A stretch of 64,000 bases of DNA, taken from NCBI GenBank assembly GCA_013239625.1, contig MU053185.1:1-64000 (forward strand), read 5' to 3'. Origin of the DNA: Lama guanicoe. Its lineage: Eukaryota. The notes under the pieces are model-generated. The model did not search any database and was not told the origin of the DNA. It saw only the letters and a program-made list of their open reading frames with translations. Position numbers and translations under genes: made by a program. Of the stretch, positions 35,301 through 48,224 are shown in pieces. Numbering within the stretch: the stretch's first letter is position 1; every line of letters begins with the position of its first letter.

Positions 35301-36907
35301 TGAATTATACTTATGTAAGCAGACTTGGAACAGTTATCTTTTCTATCTGATCCATCCAGAGACTGGAAACTCTTAGGTCCCCAGTGGCTCTATCAGATAA
35401 ATAAGGAAAATCACCTCCTAACAGGTATAGGAGTCTCAAGGTATTTTGAGGAACTTCAAAAGAAAAGAATTCACCTAAATATGTAAAGCAAAATCTGTGA
35501 CAAGCCCTTAACAAGGCTTACCTGGCCTTAGGAGACCTTACTAAAAATTCATCTTGAGTTCTGGCACAGACAGTTTAAAAGAGCCTATATGATCAAATAA
35601 TCAGACTTAATTTGCAGATAAATTAATCTTGATTTGACTATATTTGATAAAAATGAGGGTAACGTTAGAGAGAAAAAGATTGTATTTCAGTGGATATTAA
35701 ATTCTAGTTTTGTTAATTGAGGTCTATTTACTAAGACTCACCAGATCATTCCTTGCTGTTATGTTATATTGTTACTGTGTTTAATTGAATTATTAAAAGG
35801 ACACTCTAGGTTTGTTTCTGAAGCTCAGTAATCTATCCTTGGATGAAGATCTGATGCCCCATGACCTGCAAACAGGGGATTATACATACTGTAACAGACA
35901 TGATTTAAAAACTATCTTCAGCCTGAATGGAAGGACCCTTTATCAGGTACTCTTAACTAGACATGCACAGCAAAAGCTGAAGGAAACTGACTTTTGGATT
36001 AATTTCCAGTCAGAAAGAGCCCCTGCACTGGACTGATCTATAGAGCACTGCTCACCTTAAAACAATGCTCAGATGGAGAAGCTACCAGCCCAGGATGAGA
36101 AGATGACATCTGAGGTAGACAGCTGACCCAAGACACTGGACCAGATCTGTATACCAATTACTTTGATTATTGCTCATACCATTGCTTATGAACTAATCCA
36201 ACTGTTAGGTTTATGGTCAATTACCTATATCTAGCACTTCTGTGTTACCTTGGTGGGTTTCCCTACTCCAAGGCTCTAACTAGATAGCCCTGAGAAAATT
36301 TATTCTAAAAAAATTATAGTTCTATTTAGGCCACTATTGACATTACAAGGTGGGAACCCTCACCTGGCCAATTAATAATACCTGCTCTGAGCCTAGCCAT
36401 AAATATGAATTTTCTTATAAGATCACTCAAGCTCAACCAAGGCAACAAGCAAAATTTCAGCCAAAGAATATAACCTCCCTCAATTATGGAAAGGACTTAT
36501 ATGGTTAACACCAGGGTATAGACATTTAGGTTTAAAGGCTCTCTTATGTTGGAAAAAATTAAATTATACTAAAGATAACCAACCTAACAACACTAGGAAA
36601 TTTGGCTGGGAGTCTTACGAACAATGCCTGTATAACGTCTTCCTTAAAGATAAGGACTGATACAAAGCAGACTGTCAGATGACCCAGGGATACACTGAGC
36701 TGCACCTAATGAAAAATTTTGACTAAAATTCTTACTTATGACCTTACTAATACTTCTAACTATATTATTTGTATTTTGCCTGTTTTACAAAATTGTTGTT
36801 TCTTGCATTACCAAATGTATGACTGAGCCTCTGATAAAATAATGATTAGGGAACTTGAAAGAGTAGACAAGATACATACTTCTGTATGAGACCCATGATT
36901 GTAATAG
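32400..36907 (+). mobile_element. Non-autonomous MER4-group-like ERV internal mosaic with IN-tail and env remnants; resumes at 42901-43150
   Basis: W.GP.QVLL-like IN tail near 35930; LQNHMALNI-like env remnant near 33650; paralogous blocks at 32830-33130 and 35810-36430. Confidence 0.6.
34302..34958 (+). mobile_element. Solo LTR, family of provirus C
   Basis: TGTTAG...CAACA; TSD taac at 34298-34301 and 34959-34962; high identity to LTRs at 48225, 55309 and 58033. Confidence 0.95.
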
Positions 36908-37321
36908 TGTGAAGGAAAAGCCGGGCTGGTCTAACAAGATAACTCACAAATCTAAGTATGGGGATACTGATCTGAGTTCTGCTAGACTAACTCATAAATC
37001 TAAGTTAGTGTTGGTTTGCTGTTCATGTTTTTTTGCTAGCCAGCTGGATTTTCAAAGAGACATATCTGGCTTTGGAATGTTGGTTTGCTGCCTCCCTGCC
37101 TCCACTTTTGTGATAATGACTTTGCTAAAGCTGTTCCATGCCTATTGGCCGAATACCCCAAGCTTGTACTTTACCCTATAAAACCTCATGCGCACGTCTT
37201 GGAGGTGCTCAGAGCTTTGGAGCAGAAGCCCCTCTGAGCCCGCCGGCGTAATACATCTGAGTACTCCAACCCTCCGAGTGGTGCTTGTTTCTTGACTGGC
37301 CTGTCGTTTCCGTAACATTTC

Positions 37322-37339
37322 TGGAGGCCCCAGCGAGAT
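37322..37339 (+). promoter_or_regulatory. PBS tRNA-Thr(UGU)
   Basis: tggaggccccagcgagat, complementary to the recalled 3' 18 nt of tRNA-Thr(UGU). Confidence 0.85.
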
Positions 37340-38743
37340 ACAACCAGGCCGGCCCCTTGAGCCGCTGGACTGGTGGCTCCGGCCAACCAGGGGACAGGAT
37401 TCCGGCAGCGAACGGGGTGGCACCGCCCGACAGTATTCCGGGTTCTCCTTCGTGATGGCAACTCGGCCCCCCGGGTGGCTGGGCTACAACCAGAGCCAGA
37501 CTCCACGGAGGGACAGACAGACTCACCAGGTGGCTGTCCGGACAAGGTAGGAACCCCCGGGAGGAATCAGGTCCTGTCCCATTGGACAGAAGAGGAGGCT
37601 GATCCCCTCCTACAGGCTCTCCGTCTGATGGTATTTCAGACGGGGAAATCAGGTCAGGAATCAGGTCCCGTCCCAGTGGACAGAAGAGGAGGCGGATCCC
37701 CTCCTACAGGAAACAGGATATTGGTATTGGTGGGAGGACTGTTGTTAACCTCTGTGTATGTGTGTGTGTGTGTGTGAGTGAATGAGCGGCCTGTGAAGCA
37801 TGCGATCAGGCTCGAGTTTGTAGCTCCACGGCGTTCTGCTACGGAGTTCGAGTGAGTCCCAACCTGCGGTTCCGTGGTGACCTCATACGGCTCAGGGCGG
37901 TATCAGTCCCTCAGGGTCCCGATCGGAGTCAGCGGCTTATACTGACCCGCCAAAGCTAAGAGGCACCTTCGTCCCCGCGAGGGGAGCGGCCAGGCGGACG
38001 CAACGAAAACCCTCCCTTGTCTTGTCTGCGACACCGGCACAGGGTGGCTACACTGGGAGGGAAAAGGACATAGCCAATGAGTCAACGCCCCTGTGCCCTT
38101 GGAGGCTAGGATGCTATTTCTTTGAGAAAGTCTCCTACCTGACTCTGTCACAGAACACCCGAGACTTATTGTTCCCCTACTGAACTGACCCAAGTAGTGC
38201 CCCTTTTGCCTAGCCCCAGACACCCAGGACGTAAGTTTAGAAGACGAATTCCTTCAGGACCGGGCTTGCCCAGCCCTGGAGGTCCCTTTTCTAGTCCATT
38301 TGTTTTGCCATCTGCCGTCAGTCCCAGCAAAAGAGCAGTCTCTCTGGGAACTCCGGTGTTTTGAGGAGTGAAGAAGGAAAAGATATAAAGGCTACCTTCC
38401 CAAACATCTAGAGCAACAGATATGTTATCCTTAAACATCTAAAAAGAATGGGAGGCTCTAAGTCAAAACCCACCACTCTAGACTGCATGATTAAGAATTT
38501 CAAAACGGGGTTCTCAGGACACTATGGAATTCGAATGACCCCTGGCAGGCTCCGCACTTTGTGTGAGCTTGAATGGCCGGCCTTTGGAGTCGGGTGGCCC
38601 TCAGGAGGAACTCTGGACCTAGCAACAGTGCGAGCAGTCTATCAAATAATCACTGGAACCCCAGGCCACCCAGATCAATTCCCTTACATTGACTCCTGGC
38701 TGAATATCGCCCAGACTCTACCCCCATGGATTCGGTTTTGCTC

Positions 38744-39327
38744 NNNNNNNNNNNNNNNNNNNNNNNNNNNNNNNNNNNNNNNNNNNNNNNNNNNNNNNNN
38801 NNNNNNNNNNNNNNNNNNNNNNNNNNNNNNNNNNNNNNNNNNNNNNNNNNNNNNNNNNNNNNNNNNNNNNNNNNNNNNNNNNNNNNNNNNNNNNNNNNNN
38901 NNNNNNNNNNNNNNNNNNNNNNNNNNNNNNNNNNNNNNNNNNNNNNNNNNNNNNNNNNNNNNNNNNNNNNNNNNNNNNNNNNNNNNNNNNNNNNNNNNNN
39001 NNNNNNNNNNNNNNNNNNNNNNNNNNNNNNNNNNNNNNNNNNNNNNNNNNNNNNNNNNNNNNNNNNNNNNNNNNNNNNNNNNNNNNNNNNNNNNNNNNNN
39101 NNNNNNNNNNNNNNNNNNNNNNNNNNNNNNNNNNNNNNNNNNNNNNNNNNNNNNNNNNNNNNNNNNNNNNNNNNNNNNNNNNNNNNNNNNNNNNNNNNNN
39201 NNNNNNNNNNNNNNNNNNNNNNNNNNNNNNNNNNNNNNNNNNNNNNNNNNNNNNNNNNNNNNNNNNNNNNNNNNNNNNNNNNNNNNNNNNNNNNNNNNNN
39301 NNNNNNNNNNNNNNNNNNNNNNNNNNN
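38744..39327. other. Assembly gap (584 N)
   Basis: Run of n. Confidence 1.
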
Positions 39328-39343
39328 TCCTTCCTACTCTGAA

Positions 39344-39810
39344 AAACTGCAGGCATTTCAATCACATTATGGTCTAAACAAAATTAAGAAGAAGAGCTTC
39401 CACAATAATAGCAGATAAAGAGCCACTGGTAAACCTGTCAGGATTTTTGGCCTGCCCTCCAAAGAAAAGGAGTGAAAAGTGTCAGAGTGGGCCATGGAAG
39501 ACGTCAAGGGGAGCCACGCCAAGCAGCGGCGGATGGAACAGCAACCACTGCCACCTGGCAACAGCCGCAGCAGCAGCACCCCCAGCCCCGGCACCGCCTC
39601 CACCTGGGCCATCGCCGCCTCCACCTGGGCCACCGCCACCTCCATGGCAACTGTCGGGGAGCACCGGCCCCTGCCCAGTCCTGAAATGATGCTGGGATAG
39701 TAATAGGGCTCTGTCGCAGAGACATGCGAATATTTGGTCCCTGTCCAGCCCACAATGATTTCCACTTGGTGGTATGTGACGACTGTAATCAGGCTGTCAA
39801 GCCACAGGCT
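39344..39810 (+). pseudogene. ATXN7: Intronless, circularly permuted ATXN7 (ataxin-7) 5' fragment inside gag
   Basis: Encodes KLQAFQSHY, then ~98 nt of non-coding sequence, then SE.A.EDV.GEPR, QQPQQQHP, ASTWA..AMATVGEHRPLPSPEMMLG, GLCRRDMRIFGPCPAHNDFHLVVCDDCNQAVKPQA; these match the recalled ataxin-7 N-terminus. Confidence 0.93.
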
Positions 39811-40689
39811 ATGATTGACCTCTTAGAGTCTATCTTCCATTCTCACCGGCCCACCTGGGAAGATGCCCGCCAGCTGCTTCTGACTCTTTTCAATACAGAG
39901 GAGAGGAGACGCATTCTCACTGAAGCACGAAAATGGCCACAGGGCCTAGCCCCTGGGGACACAATGGATGTTGAGGGGTGGGCCATGACACATGCCCCTG
40001 ACACCAGACCAGATTGGGACTTTAACACCCAAGAAGGAAGAGAAGCACTGTGTGAGTACCGGGAGGCCATCCTACAAGGGCTAAGAGCGGGAGCCAAGAA
40101 GCCAACTAACATGTCTAAAACGACCACGGTGACCCAGAAGCCAGACGAGACCCTCACTGACTTCTATGAGAGACTATGTGAAGCATTCCGAGTCTACACT
40201 CCTTTTGATGCTGAGGCCCAAGAAAACCAGCGGATGGTCAACGCTGCCTTCGTAGCGCAATCATACCCAGATACACGCCGGAAACTCCAAAAACTGGATG
40301 GATTCACAGTGATGAACGCTACACAGCTGCTGGAAGTAGCAAACAAAGTTTTTGTAAACCGAGAACGGGAAGCCCAACGAGAAGCAGACCAGCGAATGAA
40401 GCAGAAAGCCGCATTCCTTGCAGCAGCCCTGGGGAAAACAAGCTTCTGCCAGAATCCTGCACCACCCGGAAGAGGGGACCCCAACCATGGATGCCCCTGG
40501 GCCGAGACCAGTGCGCATACTGCCGGGAGACAGGGCACTGGAAAAACGAGTGCCCAAACAGAAAGGATGGAAAGAGAGCACCCCCAAAAGGCCTACTTAT
40601 CAGCTGGAGCCACCAGCCAGTAATCACATCGGACTGGCTGGGGTCGACTCAGAACAGGAGAGACCACGCTCCCTGCCCCTGGGCCCCGG

Positions 40690-42230
40690 GAAGCCCAAGG
40701 TCAAGATATTTATAGGGGGCCAACCAATGACTTTTATGGTAGACACAGGAGCAAAGTATTCTGTGGTGACCCAACCTGTAGCCCCCCCCCCCCGACCAAG
40801 AAAAAGGCGACTATTATAGGGGCTACTGGGGACTCAACTGCCCGCCATTTCTGCCAGCCACGATCCTGTCGAGTAGGAGGCCATCTAGTGACACATGCCA
40901 TTATTCACTGTAAGGGACACCAAAAAGGAAATGACCCTGTGAGCCAGGGGAACAGGCTGGCTGATCAAAGGCAAGAGGCAGCTGCCTGGGAACACTCAGT
41001 AATTAAAGTTATGGCAGCACCAGAGCTACCCACTGCCCCCAGAATATAGCCACGATGAAAACAAGTGGGCACAGGCCGAACAGGGAAAGAAAGGAAAGGA
41101 TGGATGGTGGATCATGACGGATGGGAGGGTTTTCATCCCAGAACGACTAGCTTATCATCTAGTCCAACAACAACACAAAGCCACACACATGGGAAAAACG
41201 GCTTTGGAGGCCCTCTTAAAGCGATATTTCTTAATTTCTCATCTCCCTACTCTGTGCGCATCAGTCTCCCAACACTGCTTGCTCTGTGCACAAAACAATC
41301 CAAAACAAGGGCTCACTGGGCCAATGGGAATACAACGATGCGGATTGGCTCCCTTCAAAGATTTAGAAGTGGACTTTACTGAACTTGGGCCCAGTAAGGG
41401 ATAAAAGTACCTGCTGGTTTTCGTCTGCACCTTCACAGGGTGGGTAGAAGCCTACCGCACCAGGACAGAGAAAGCAAGAGAGGTAGCAAAGGCTCTCCTC
41501 AGGGATGTTATCCCTCGATTTGGAATGCCTACCTCCGTCAGGTCTGACAATGGACCCACCTTCATGGCAGAAATTGTACAGCAAGTGGCAAAGGCACTGA
41601 GCATCCCCCGGAACCTGCACACAGCATACCAGCCTCAAAGCTCAGGGAAGGTAAAACGAATGAACAGAACTCTAAAACAAATGATAGCTAAAATCAGCCA
41701 AGAAACCCAGCTCCCCTGGGTGGACATTTTACCCCTGGCTCTGTTGTGAATAAGATGCACCCCAAGATTTAATATTGGGTACTCTCCCTTTGAAATCCTC
41801 TATGGGCGACCGCCACCTTTAGTCAAGATGGGAAATCCCACCCCAGAAATAGGAAATTTAGGGCTCCAACAAAAACTGTTGGGACTAGGACAAGTACTAT
41901 GAGAAGTTTGGGGTTGGGTGATAAACCCCCATTTCATTAGGGGTCCAAATGCATCCCCATAAACCAGGTAACCAGGTATGGGTGAAGGACTGGAAAAAGG
42001 AACCTCTGAAACCAACATGGAAGGGACCATATTTAGTGGTATTAACTACCCCTACAGCTGTTAAAGTTGCAGGAATCATCCCTCGGGTCCACCACTCCAG
42101 GGTTAAGAGAGCGACTTCACGTCAGACAGAGGGTCCCTGGAAAATTTAGAGGGTCCCAGGAGACCCGCTCAAGATCAAGATCAAGAGGGACCAGAAAAGG
42201 ATCTACGAGCCCTGCTCTAGCCACACCCGG
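40690..42230 (+). pseudogene. pol: Provirus B pro plus RNase H tail plus integrase; RT deleted near 40897
   Basis: FMVDTGAKYSVV; jump to IIHCKGHQKG; HHCC (HKATHMG...CLLCAQ), EVDFTE, SDNGP, WKGPY motifs. Confidence 0.92.
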
Positions 42231-43150
42231 AAGCTGGCTAGTCAACACACGGCCGAAGCTTGAGGAAAGCTCAACGCAGCTGTTAAATGTATTTCTTTTG
42301 TGCTCCCTTGCCTCTTTCCTTGTTTACTATACTAGTCTGCATATTAGCAGTGGCGCTAGCTAGGGCCACCCCACCTGACTGGAACATAGGCCATAGAATC
42401 CTGATAGCTATTTTTTATCTTGTTATAATTAGTGCCATTGTGAAGGAAAAGCCAGGCTGGTCTAACAAGATAACTCAAGTCTAGGAATGTGAAGGAGAGG
42501 CTGGGCTGGTCTAACAAGATAACTCACAAATCTAAGTATTGGAATACTGATCTGAGTTCTGCTAGACTAACTTGTAAATCTAGGTTAATTAGTGTTGATT
42601 TGCTGCTCATGTTTTTTGCTAGCCAGCTGGGTTTTCAAAGAGACATATCTGGCTTTGGAATGTTGGTTTGCTGCCTCCCCACCTCCACTTTTGTGATGAT
42701 GCTGCTGCTAAAGCTGTTCCATGCCTATTGGCCGAATACCCCAAGCTTGTACTTTACCCTATAAAACCTCACACGCACGTCTTGGAGGTGCTCAGAGCTT
42801 CGGAGCAGAAGCCCCTCTGAGCCCGCCGGCGTAATACATCTGAGTACTCCAACCCTCCAAGTGGTGCTTATTTCTTGGCTGGCCTGTCGTTTCCATTACA
42901 ATAGTGCAAGTCTAGACATGGGAGGAGCAACAAGAGGGAATATTTTCCTGGATCATGATAGATGAGTAAGACAGGAGATCCAGAGAATTTTTGAGTATCA
43001 ATAGGGCCTAATCCCTGTTAACACCTTTGAGTAGCAGGTCAACAAAATCTTCCCGCGATCTAGGAATGAGCCTTCCTAGCACCATGGGACAAAATTGGTC
43101 ATGAAATGTCTCCCAAAATATTGGTTGAATTTAGGACCAAGGGGGAGCAC

Positions 43151-44361: not shown

Positions 44362-47300
44362 ATTGGTTCCTATCAGGGAAATGTATGTGGGGGCTCATCT
44401 CAGGCCCAGCTGAGTGACCCCAGGCATTTCTATTCAATTGCATTGCTACTGATAGGCTGAGAACAGCACAAAACAATTGGCCTAGCTGACAGGACTGCAT
44501 GATGGCCTTTGCAATTAATCAAGGGAACACCCTTTAGCTGTAACTGGCTTGCTCGCTGACTAACCCAGATGGGTGACACCATCTGGGAACAGAACACTGC
44601 TTGCTGGAGGGCGGTCATGCTGCTGCGTGCTTTCCCATATTGCCTCTGTCGTGTGCTGCCTGTGGTACCCACCCCAAAATGTCACTGCTGCCATAATAAT
44701 TCAATGATCTCCCCAGAGCAGTGAGATCAAGGCCATATGGTCTAATGAGGCAATTAGATCACTAATTAAAAAGGCTTTAATTGGCTGTTAATGTACATGA
44801 GGGTCCCACACACCTCCTGCTATGCAAAGTTGGCATGATCCAATGGCTCTGTCATTTCTATGACCATAGTGACCCAAATGATCCCCTGAATTGCCAACCC
44901 TGGATTTGCCCCATTTGACCCTAAGTCCAGATCGTATTCTTTTTACTAATTCCAGGGCAGTGCTACTGCATTTTGGAGACATTCCTGAAACTATCAGGCA
45001 CTGGAGGGCACTGACATGGTTGCTAGACATAGACACTGCCGCCCAGATGCCCCAATACTTCAGACTTGTCGCCTTCTGTCCCCACTGCCCCAGAAAGGTC
45101 TCCCACAAACAAATTTTCCTCAATGGAAAGGGTTTCCCACTCCCTCCCTAATAAACCCCTGATGTAATTTTGCCCCTTATGGTACTGGGAGTTACGGAAA
45201 CTTAGGGTTTTTGGCCAATCTCTGGATAGCGAGTCTCTAAACTCCAGGCCCTGAAACTAACATTCTCCCAGCTATAGCATTCTTCTGCTGTCCAGCCTCT
45301 TGCCACACCCCTCTAGCCCCAAGCCAATCCCCACTATTCCCTCTACCCCTTCCCTAACCTCTAGTACTGGCAGCCTACTTAAGCTCCTACCCTAGGAAAT
45401 CAACAGTTCCCTGTGCTGGGCCCACCTCCCAGAGTCAATCAACCCTATACCACTCTGGTGGTCCATTAGTACAATAAAAAGACACAGTCCTTTTTGGCCC
45501 TACTAGACATGGGGACCCAAGCCACTCATTCCAAGCAATCCTTCTAAATCTCAAAAAAAGATGCCCTTCTACCTACAAGGCATTGCCAGTAAAACAATCA
45601 AAGGTGTACAAATCCACCTGGATATCCCTAACAGGACCATTCACTTCAAATGGCTTCCTTTGGTGGTGGCCACCAGCTTGTTCTTTCATATTATAGGTGT
45701 GGATGCACTGACATGATGCCATGCCCATGGAAAAAGCCCAAGTTCTTGGCCTTCTTGGTGGGACTGACCAAATGGATGTCAGTGACTCTTCCCTCCTGGT
45801 CGAGACAGTAAACACTACCCAATATCGATGTAAACACAGCAGGGAGGGCCTACACCCTGTCATGTAAGATACACTTCAGCCCGGAGTCAGGAAGCCACAA
45901 TCTCCCCTTTCAATAGCCCCATTTGGCCGATATCTAGACCAGCCACCAACGAATGGCACCTCACCATTGACTATCAAGACCTCAGTTCTCAGGTTCCCTA
46001 TTAAGGCTTCAATTCCTAATAATACAGAACTGAGTGAGGACATATAATCGGCCCAAGGAGTGTCCTTTGTTGACCCACTAACCTGTTCTATTCTGTTCCC
46101 ATCTCAGAGGAGTCTCAGGCTCAATTTTCTTTCACTTTTGAAAGGAGTGAATATACATTTATGTGGTTCCCAATGGGATATTTAAACAGCCCTGCAATCA
46201 CACATAATCTCTGCCACCAAAATGTTAATACCTTACACTTGGAAAGGTGTCATTTTGGGCATTATATTGACGACACTATGTTCAGGTGTCCTTCTGAGAA
46301 AACAGGACGAGCAGATTTTGCCCCCCTCACACACCACCTACACCAGTGTGGCTGGGCAATCGCCCCTCACAAGATCCAAGGCCCTGCCTCATCTGTCAAA
46401 TTTCTGGGTGTCTAGTCCCCCAAGGACTGAGAAATTTCCCCAACAATAATTACTCACCATTAAATCACCCACGACACTCAGACAAGCACAACACATATTA
46501 GGCCTTTTCATGTGCGGGAGGCAACACATCACATCTCAATGTTTTTTCGTCCTATGTACACAATCACATACAAGTCGGCCACTTTCCATTGGGGTGAAGC
46601 CCAACAGTGTGCTTTGACAGCTTTCCAGCAGAAAGGCCACAAAACTTTACCTTTAGTCCCCAACTGGCTCCATAGTCCATGTCAAGTCATTGGCCACACC
46701 TGACTAACCCTCCTGGAGTCTCAGGAGCAAACAGGAGACTACCTGGCTTCCCATGGGGTTTGGGATCCCTGGCAGCAGACACATATACTCCCCTTAAACA
46801 CCAGCTTTTGGCATCCTTTTTGGGCTCTTTTAGGAACTGAATCCCTAAGCAGGCCCCACCTGGTACTACTCTAAATACAAGTTCCCATGATGCCCTGTGT
46901 TAGAGATGTCTTTCAAGAGAAAAGCTCAGCACAGCCACCAATGCCTCCTTAGTGACATGGAAATGGTACCTTCAGGAGAGAGCTAAACGTGACGTCAAAG
47001 GCCTTCCAAATTATAGGAGGATGTGGCTTCCCCGATGCTCAGCCCCTTGCCGGACAGCCTCAAGGAACAGCAGCACCCCCTCCCATTCTCCTCCTGTGGC
47101 TCCTTGGGGAGCCCGTGGGGAGCAACTGTCTGGACCTGTAGCTGTTCACCTAGCCCTTAAGGAGGCCATAAAAAGGGCCTTTCACAGATCCCTATTTTCA
47201 CAGACTCCTGGACTGTTGCTAACAGCCTTGCAGTTTGGTCTGGCCAATGGCTCAGGGACAGTTTTCTCATACAAGGCAAGTCCACCTGGGGCTCCTAGAT

Positions 47301-48224
47301 ACAGGAGGAACTAGGAGAATCCCAGTCCCTCTCAGCGGTACTCACAGTTCCACTCCCTCTAACCACCCCACACCAGAAGCCATTTTCAACAATACTGCAG
47401 ACCCTCTCACTCAGCCCTCCACTCTCTGCCAGGTAGATGCCTCCGGGCGCTGACCCTTCTCACCAGCTTTTAAAATGGGCTCACAGCACCTTGGGTCATC
47501 GGATACTCGTGCCTTAATAACTTGGGCTCAAGTGAGGGCCCCCACCCCTCAGCAGCAGCCAAGATTGTGATACACGAACGCACTCTCTGCAACCAAACTA
47601 GACATCGGGGGCTACCCGATAGGGACATACTCCCGGGGGGAGACTGACCATACGCCCACTGGCAGATTGATTTCATCAGCCCATGGCCCCCTTCTGCTGG
47701 GCTTTCCAGATACCCCATCGCATTCATGGATACTTACATGGGACTCCTCTTGGCGAACTCTACCTGGAATTCCTCCTCAAAACACATAATCTCTTTCCTC
47801 ACTAAGTTTATTGGTCCCTTTGGATTGCCATTGTTGACTGTGACCAGGACACCCACTTCACCTCTCAGAAGAATCACCAGTGAGCTCTTCCAACAAAGTG
47901 GCTTTCAAAACTTCTAGCAAGGTTATGCCCCCAGGTGGCTGACCTCATTGAGCATCTTAATGACCTCCTTAAAGAGATATGACTTAAATTGTTTTCAAGC
48001 AAGTGGTTCTTGAAATGGATCGAACTCTCGTCCCAGGTCCTCATCTTCCTTAATCTTCACCCCCTGAGCCTTCATACCCACATACCAATTATTATACACC
48101 CTCCCCACAAATTCCATTTTCAGTCATGTCTGGTAATCCTCATGCTTTTACACTAACACGATGTCCTTTTTATTGTGTCCTCTAACTCCGCTTCCCCCTG
48201 CTGCTATAACTTTTTGCATCATAC
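44362..48224 (+). pseudogene. pol: Class III (ERV-L-like) gag-pro-pol remnant; probably continues at 58688-60420
   Basis: LALLD.GTQ protease; FNSPIWP; FPMGYLNSPAITHNLC; HYIDD; GWAIAPHKIQGPASSVKFLGV; WQIDFI. Confidence 0.85.

Follow-up and report, generated by a model that had tools for sequence, protein, structure and literature searches.

A permuted, intronless lap of ATXN7 exons in the gag gene of an endogenous retrovirus family of Lama guanicoe

The ATXN7 insert and the host gene

The window analysed here, 64,000 nucleotides (nt) of Lama guanicoe DNA (assembly GCA_013239625.1, contig MU053185.1, positions 1 to 64,000 of the forward strand), contains a provirus spanning 36908-42900 whose gag gene is interrupted, about 33 residues into the capsid protein (CA), by sequence from the host gene ATXN7, which encodes ataxin-7. 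Judged by its 4-bp target-site duplication and by a matrix protein (MA) and CA of murine leukaemia virus (MLV) type, the element is a gammaretrovirus-like (class I) endogenous retrovirus (ERV). An earlier note on this DNA had proposed that the interruption is one lap of a circular RNA (circRNA) of ATXN7 carried by a retrovirus, and the coordinates that it gave (39329-39355, 39356-39371, 39372-39469 and 39799) all proved correct when window 38800-40400 was read. The exact junctions described below support that proposal, though 94 nt of the lap are missing; this loss, the missing ATG and the membership of the insert in a multi-copy family went unmentioned in the note.

The insert lies on the same strand as gag (+), and gag sequence flanks it on both sides. 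The last gag sequence before it belongs to the CA N-terminal domain (...PSYSE; 39328..39343) and has the same context in insert-free copies (...CCTTCCTACTCTGAA); the first gag letters after a run of N read cct tcc tac tct gaa aaa ctg cag gca (PSYSEKLQA; 39329-39355). The final 12 nt of these (39344..39355; AAACTGCAGGCA, K-L-Q-A in the window) form the upstream copy of a homology between gag and ATXN7 and end in GCA, like ATXN7. There follow, all on the plus strand, the last 16 nt of ATXN7 exon 5 up to its splice donor (39356..39371; ttt caa tca cat tat g, FQSHY plus a G, where the gene has TTTCAATCGCATTATG/GTAAGT), the 98-nt exon 2 from the 5′ untranslated region (UTR; 39372..39469), the CAG/GCC-rich start-codon exon 3, truncated at its 3′ end (39470..39701), the last 20 nt of exon 4 (39702..39721), before which 94 nt of the mRNA are missing, and exon 5 up to the homology (39722..39798; ...MRIFGPCPAHNDFHLVVCDDCNQAV). 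The downstream copy of the homology (39799..39810; AAGCCACAGGCT, KPQA) ends in GCT, like gag. The insert thus closes with ...CNQAVKPQA at 39810 and gag takes up again with MIDLLESIFHSH at 39811, its remaining CA and nucleocapsid (39811..40623; Gag_p30, E 1.4e-47) sharing the reading frame of the insert's exon 5 part; the Gag_p30 match in the window starts at profile position 16, on the K of KPQA. The host-derived part has no poly(A), its end ...GTCAAGCCACAGGCT running straight into gag.

A search of the genome (2.05 Gb) with window 39328-39830 (a 503-nt query) returned, besides many retroviral copies, three ATXN7 matches on contig C4216, a contig other than that of the window. Since these matches are colinear and single-copy, the present-day gene does not have the order exon 5 to exon 2. 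Host exon 2 (L021:501-598, 98 nt; acceptor CCCCTTTTCTTTTTTTATAG/GTCT, donor AAAAG/GTAACT) is identical to the insert at 87 of 98 bases. It has a polypyrimidine tract, an AG acceptor (TTTTTTTATAG/GTCT) and a GT donor, and lies ~13 kb upstream of the ATG exon, in agreement with the 5′ UTR exon of ~99 nt that the earlier note places before the start codon. Exon 3, with the start codon, measures 324 nt (L022:440-763; acceptor TTGTAG/GAGCGG), and its part in the window aligns with L022:440-718; exon 4 measures 69 nt (L022:988-1056) and exon 5 105 nt (L023:502-606; acceptor TTGCAG/ACATGCC, donor CATTATG/GTAAGT), the latter ending in TAT G as the note states. Together exons 2-5 total 596 nt, and exons 3 and 4 amount to 393 nt in this host against 405 nt reported for human. 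The exon 5 translation corresponds to Ataxin-7 residues 133-166 and is identical to PDB 7ktr_N at 33 of 34 positions; a PDB search with the exon 3 translation, a low-complexity sequence and hence uninformative, gave no match at E up to 1.

Comparison with this gene confirmed that 39371/39372 is an exact back-splice junction: position 39371 is the last base of exon 5, at its splice donor, and 39372 the first base of exon 2, so that the block 39372-39469 is neither ATXN7 intron nor unrelated sequence. The exon 2/3 join at 39469/39470 is exact and intronless at the canonical acceptor TTGTAG/GAGCGG, and the exon 4/5 join at 39721/39722 is likewise intronless. The insert draws on exons 2, 3, 4 (in part) and 5 only and has three intronless joins; it is one permuted, intronless lap of ATXN7 exons 2-5 with a direct 12-nt repeat on either side. 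The window copy has lost the ATXN7 ATG. The 94 nt of spliced mRNA absent from the insert divide into 45 nt at the 3′ end of exon 3 and 49 nt at the 5′ end of exon 4, and the sequences on either side are joined with a 3-nt AGT overlap at 39699-39701. Cryptic splicing was rejected as the source of this gap, because a GT-AG intron results from none of the four registers of the overlap; the 94 nt were deleted rather than spliced out.

Copies with and without the insert

The feature begins at the edge of an assembly gap of 584 N, a position that would suit an assembly artefact, as would the uneven identity of the window copy to a relative at C7387:2413545-2417292 (L025, a copy with a partial insert). 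Window 39825-40918 is 99.3% identical to that relative, with 8 differences over about 1090 nt, but identity is 77% in the insert part that adjoins it upstream and about 92% in the long terminal repeats (LTRs), so that the window copy is perhaps chimeric or gene-converted. The junction is, however, shared by 24 loci on many contigs. Its motif has 22 exact sites genome-wide, 21 of them in ERV loci found by the search with 39328-39830, and the total of 24 is reached by adding two known one-mismatch copies and one degenerate copy. The motif search gave 67 matches, 45 of them with one mismatch; since a reversed control gave 26 in all, the one-mismatch matches were taken to be mostly chance and only the two at known loci were counted.

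The junctions are also spanned by independent sequence data, available as contigs only (X1, X4, X12 and X16; runs under three organism labels as well as RNA libraries contain the stretch). Three contigs, X1 record 1, X12 record 9 and X16 record 17, run over the back-splice junction and cover at least 31 nt to either side of it; they come from runs under two organism labels and from an RNA library. The X4 records have less than 31 nt on at least one side, and the downstream junction is bridged by X1 record 6. X16 record 17, the contig from the RNA library (148 nt, window 39328-39434), matches without a single mismatch and reaches 41 nt into the gap; both an ERV transcript and DNA carry-over are possible sources of it. 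Loose contig ends at 39799 in X1, X4 and X16 read ...CTCCTTCCTACTCTGAA, which is the insert-free form. X1 and X16 give no cover over about 39488-39627, the GC-rich repeat part, which is uninformative for data consisting of contigs only. An assembly artefact is refuted for the family, and the probability that we leave to it is next to nil. The gap beside the insert looks overestimated in size, because the gag stretch that matches it in the relative L002 is only about 373 nt long as against 584 N.

Relatives without the insert were found in a search with the CA region (39811-40560), which gave 41 matches from 86 candidates, the best 30 of which were taken as loci: 20 contain no ATXN7 sequence, 6 a full insert and 4 a partial insert. 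The 20 insert-free loci read ...CCTTCCTACTCTGAA AAGCC(G/A)CAGGCT ATGATTGAC (PSYSEKPQAMIDL), an uninterrupted gag, and the corresponding site pattern ...TACTCTGAA AAGCC(G/A)CAGGCT ATGATT has 26 matches genome-wide against 0 in a reversed control. Because the insert-free Gag aligns over the site without a gap to the MLV-type capsid structure 6hwx (psysekpqamidl over PSFSEDPGKLTAL) and matches Gag_p30 there, from profile position 2, the residues KPQA are native to gag. The stretch that encodes them in gag, AAGCCGCAGGCT, and its counterpart in ATXN7, AAACCGCAGGCA, which also encodes K-P-Q-A, are equal at 10 of 12 bases with an identical core of 8 nt. This homology is present at both borders: the insert starts directly after the 12-nt stretch and finishes with the same stretch. 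One insert-free gag site, C2832:16193190-16193212, reads AAAAAC at the Lys codon and so has the ATXN7-type third base; either a simple G-to-A change or loss of an insert by recombination between the 12-nt repeats would account for it.

An alignment of 24 insert-bearing and 20 insert-free copies shows a polarity in the repeats. The upstream repeat ends in GCA in all 20 full copies and begins with AAA in 17 of them, both being ATXN7 states, and the downstream repeat ends in GCT, the gag state, in 23 of the 24 insert-bearing copies (ACT in L037), as it does in 20 of 20 insert-free copies; its start among the full copies is AAA in 13 and AAG in 7. Such a pattern is what is expected if both switches between gag and ATXN7 fell in the homology or at its edge. 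The position of the borders also bears on an origin at the DNA level, by which one lap was gained through recombination or read-through from an existing circATXN7 processed pseudogene, for example a multi-lap rolling-circle copy made by a long interspersed nuclear element (LINE). Pseudogenes derived from circRNAs are known in mouse and human (PMC4897178). However, both borders lie within the 12-nt gag/ATXN7 homology, which copy-choice between RNAs predicts and a DNA insertion does not need, and the 22 matches over essentially the whole 503-nt query include gag on both sides; partial matches are deletion forms or lie at the ends of tiny contigs, the exact site at C7236:3140142 being outside this comparison. 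A DNA-level origin strikes us as very unlikely.

In the same alignment the back-splice junction and the upstream gag/ATXN7 junction are intact in 20 of 20 full copies and the exon 2/3 join in 19 (the remaining copy has an A-run expansion), while the join of the 94-nt deletion and the downstream junction are intact in all 24 insert-bearing copies. Independent copies are somewhat fewer, because L011 and L012 have the same sequence, as do L015 and L016. Since all full copies share the junctions and all insert-bearing copies the derived 94-nt deletion, the data point to one capture followed by amplification. Four copies (L025, L033, L037 and L041) have a partial form, in which gag GAAAAGCCGC is joined to mid-exon 3 with a 6-nt overlap; the insert's initial ~195 nt, with the back-splice junction, are absent from them, but the 94-nt deletion is kept. 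Because this deletion and the downstream junction are common to both forms, the partial form derives from the full form. The partial form was rejected as the ancestor, for the full form would then need a second capture. The AAG codon of the partial copies suggests that they may have recombined with an insert-free genome.

These results can be set against the explanation that the permuted order arose by chance, through two or more captures of linear mRNA or through a jump of reverse transcriptase (RT) from the 5′ end of exon 2 to the end of exon 5. Jumps of RT can make false non-colinear junctions, a caveat raised in PMC4897178, and the 94-nt deletion, with its AGT overlap and no GT-AG, is itself such a jump. 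However, the junction 39371/39372 coincides with a splice site on both sides, exon 2 is internal rather than the 5′ terminus of an RNA, since a polypyrimidine tract and an AG acceptor precede it, and the linear-looking partial form descends from the full one. A chance permutation is in our estimation extremely unlikely.

At the alignment column of window 39480 the context of the ATXN7 start codon (GAAAGAATGTC) survives in two of the 20 full copies (L017 and L020), whereas the others share a 2-nt loss, marking a split into subfamilies. Four insert-bearing copies (L013, L015, L016 and L018) lie within ~41 kb at C1236:2939174-2980236 in alternating orientation, two of them identical where aligned, an arrangement that suggests local segmental duplication in addition to retrotransposition. 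Thirteen insert-bearing loci (L004, L008 and L010-L020) run from CA position 213, and those of them that were mapped onto the window provirus match it again in pol. In L012 the intervening stretch is RT connection/RNase H (PDB; best match residues 429-554 of the RT of MLV/xenotropic MLV-related virus, XMRV), and Pfam gave no hit on the extra segment of the older copies. The deletion of the window copy differs from theirs, and neither deletion form can be derived from the other by simple deletion. A domesticated, Fv1-like fusion of ataxin-7 and CA was rejected: the frame from the codon equivalent to ataxin-7 M133 into CA (about 107 codons) is not kept, being open in 5 of 24 insert-bearing copies and broken in most; among the 20 insert-free copies, 14 have an open CA frame (82 codons).

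The two LTRs of the window copy differ at 26 of 409 positions (6.4%) and those of the copy on C5185 by 30 mismatches over 297 aligned positions (10.2%). At a neutral rate of ~2.2e-9 per site per year, these values correspond to roughly 14 and 23 million years, respectively, or more. The flanks at the target sites, ATAG/ATAG in the window and GCCT/GGCT at the C5185 copy, show that the two are separate integrations.

A model of capture from a circular RNA

The reading that we consider highly probable is that reverse transcription switched from gag RNA to a co-packaged circATXN7 at the homology, ran one lap and switched back to gag. We infer that the virus, in its infectious past, would have packaged the host circular RNA circATXN7 (exons 2-3-4-5). 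During minus-strand DNA synthesis, RT on gag RNA would have reached K-P-Q-A, moved to the K-P-Q-A of the circle, and copied back through exons 5, 4, 3 and 2 and over the back-splice junction into the 3′ end of exon 5; after exactly one lap it would have met the same 12 nt again, leading to the switch back to gag. The switch from gag to the circle would have fallen inside the 8-nt core and that from the circle to gag at the 5′ edge of the homology, and the 94-nt deletion with its 3-nt AGT overlap probably arose at or soon after capture. Because the insert brings a stop codon into the gag frame, the recombinant would have been unable to make its own Gag and would have spread by complementation in trans, with Gag from insert-free relatives, to at least 24 germline copies and to further deletion forms.

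Identical DNA would be obtained from a linear ATXN7 RNA with repeated exons (2-3-4-5-2-3-4-5), entered and left at two successive KPQA and made either from two pre-mRNAs spliced in trans or from a tandem duplication of exons 2-5 that has since been lost: this template, too, would yield a splice-exact exon 5/exon 2 junction and homology at both borders. However, today's gene has single, colinear matches for exons 2, 3 and 5, linear transcripts with repeated exons are to our knowledge very rare in mammals, and the same exon set is catalogued as a human circRNA. A repeated-exon template thus appears quite improbable. The human circle is listed in supplement file 4 of PMC13313202, which gives nine human ATXN7 circRNAs with the CAG exon, among them circATXN7(2,3,4,5).1 (hsa_circ_0002634), with the back-splice that the earlier note had suggested looking for in such catalogues, and circATXN7(3,4).1 (hsa_circ_0007761). 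As it appears in that file, circATXN7(2,3,4,5) has the same exon set and the same back-splice partners as the insert, exon 2 being matched by position and counting; it is a living RNA, whereas the insert is a decayed DNA fossil in another mammal and lacks 94 nt. A 405-nt circATXN7 of two exons is described in PMC10786880 and a different circle, of exons 9-11, in PMC9161317.

Several points weigh against capture of a circular RNA by this virus. Sequence cannot separate a closed circle from a rare linear RNA in which exons 2-5 are repeated, and a literature search found nothing on circRNA inside retroviral particles. That the 98-nt exon is the orthologue of human exon 2 is judged from its position and from exon counting rather than from alignment. 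The copies are 84-92% identical to host exons 2 and 5, and the positions at which at least 80% of 18 copies share a base unlike that of today's gene number 6 in exon 2 (98 compared) and 2 in exon 5 (89 compared); because 8 of 187 positions of these exons thus differ from the present-day gene in most copies, the donor may have been an earlier or a different host. In a tree (FastTree, midpoint root, 44 rows, 650 flank columns), which is a rough picture only and from which no support values were read, the insert-bearing copies are deep and long-branched and 18 of the 20 insert-free copies form a shallow clade; L030, L036, L039, L045 and L050, being the same loci as L009, L003, L002, L006 and L005, had been dropped from it. 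No sampled insert-free copy is as old as the oldest insert-bearing one, in a sample biased by taking the insert-free copies from the 30 best CA matches only. Finally, the window copy is a mosaic that adjoins the gap, the product either of gene conversion or of a chimeric assembly.

The closest precedent is the work of Dong et al. (Cell Res 2016; PMC4897178) on circRNA-derived pseudogenes, in which the mouse circRFWD2, with an exon 6-exon 2 junction, has 33 high-confidence copies; LTRs are enriched beside these copies, the mechanism by which such pseudogenes arise is called 'mysterious', and according to a figure legend of that paper MMERVK10C-int sequences adjoin them. The features by which Dong et al. 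recognise such a pseudogene, a reversed splice-site junction, in-circle exons only and the lack of poly(A), are all found in the ATXN7 insert, which also resembles circRFWD2 in its many copies and in the LTR elements alongside. The two differ in gene, in host order and in ERV class, gamma-like here and, by its name, ERVK-type for MMERVK10C. In the circATXN7 family, moreover, the anatomy is legible: the insert lies inside gag CA and makes one lap, each border falls in the 12-nt homology, and there are insert-free siblings as well as derived deletion forms. Literature searches turned up neither a retroviral gene that holds a circRNA lap nor an ERV with ATXN7 sequence. The family is a second and mechanistically clearer example of the class opened by Dong et al., not a new class.

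In PMC5408686, which cites Tan et al. 2016, LTR-mediated retroposition of mRNAs is modelled as template switching at microsimilarity. With this process, as outlined there, and with mRNA transduction by copy-choice, the insert shares the sense orientation, an intronless host sequence, borders of short homology between virus and host, and a defective passenger that depends on a helper. Unlike the products of LTR-mediated retroposition as outlined there, it is circularly permuted and uses one homology for both entry and exit, which a linear mRNA cannot offer. It is possible, though we are inclined to doubt it, that retroviral capture of circRNA by copy-choice is a general route by which many-copy circRNA sequences return to mammalian germlines, with the same anatomy in circRFWD2/MMERVK10C.

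If the capture reading is right, inserts of this kind would be datable fossils of back-splice isoforms, and circATXN7(2,3,4,5), shared with human, would have existed tens of millions of years ago. The mechanism would be readable from sequence, with a single homology for the way in and the way out, one lap, the parent gag still in the genome and later deletion products, and two questions become testable, namely whether circRNAs occur in retroviral particles and whether the mouse copies have the same borders. Because the ERV copies carry a true back-splice junction, their linear transcripts would mimic the host circATXN7 junction and be miscounted as circATXN7 in RNA-seq of the host. Between the gene-type junction and that of the window copy, several bases differ within about 12 nt of the join.

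The provirus and its surroundings

The provirus lies on the plus strand between two copies of the target-site duplication ATAG (36904..36907 on the 5′ side and 42901-42904 on the 3′ side), which directly abut the LTRs. The 5′ LTR (TGTGAAGG...TAACA; 36908..37317) and the 3′ LTR (42488..42900) are paired (TG...CA) and ~410 nt each, and are identical at 383 of 414 aligned positions, with 26 mismatches and 5 gap positions between them. Directly before the 3′ LTR, at 42440-42487, lies a 48-nt partial tandem repeat of its start (TGTGAAGGAAAAGCCAGGCTGG...), with none at the 5′ LTR. The primer-binding site, read from the sequence at 37322..37339, is TGGAGGCCCCAGCGAGAT, which looks like one for tRNA-Thr.

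The gag matrix region (38412..38743; Pfam Gag_MA, E 2.7e-15) is cut by the gap of 584 N (38744..39327), which covers the p12 region of gag and the start of CA. Downstream of gag CA and nucleocapsid are the start of the protease (40400..40819; RVP and a map against relatives), an internal deletion that begins early in the protease and reaches the end of RNase H (about 40820-40897, by comparison with relatives) and an integrase with zinc-binding and core domains (41003..41749; zf-H2C2, Integrase_H2C2 and rve). The insert and the protease-to-RNase H deletion together make the provirus defective. No env-like open reading frame was noticed in 41750-42440, though no search for env was made. Pfam finds MLV-type Gag and pol domains, namely Gag_MA, Gag_p30, zf-CCHC (one CCHC knuckle), RVP and rve, and the best PDB matches are a gammaretroviral-type CA and the RT-RNase H of MLV/XMRV. 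Further along the window, 46074-47917 holds remnants of a second, unrelated retroelement pol, with RVT_1 at 46074-46415 (E 3.9e-13) and a weak rve match at 47648-47917.

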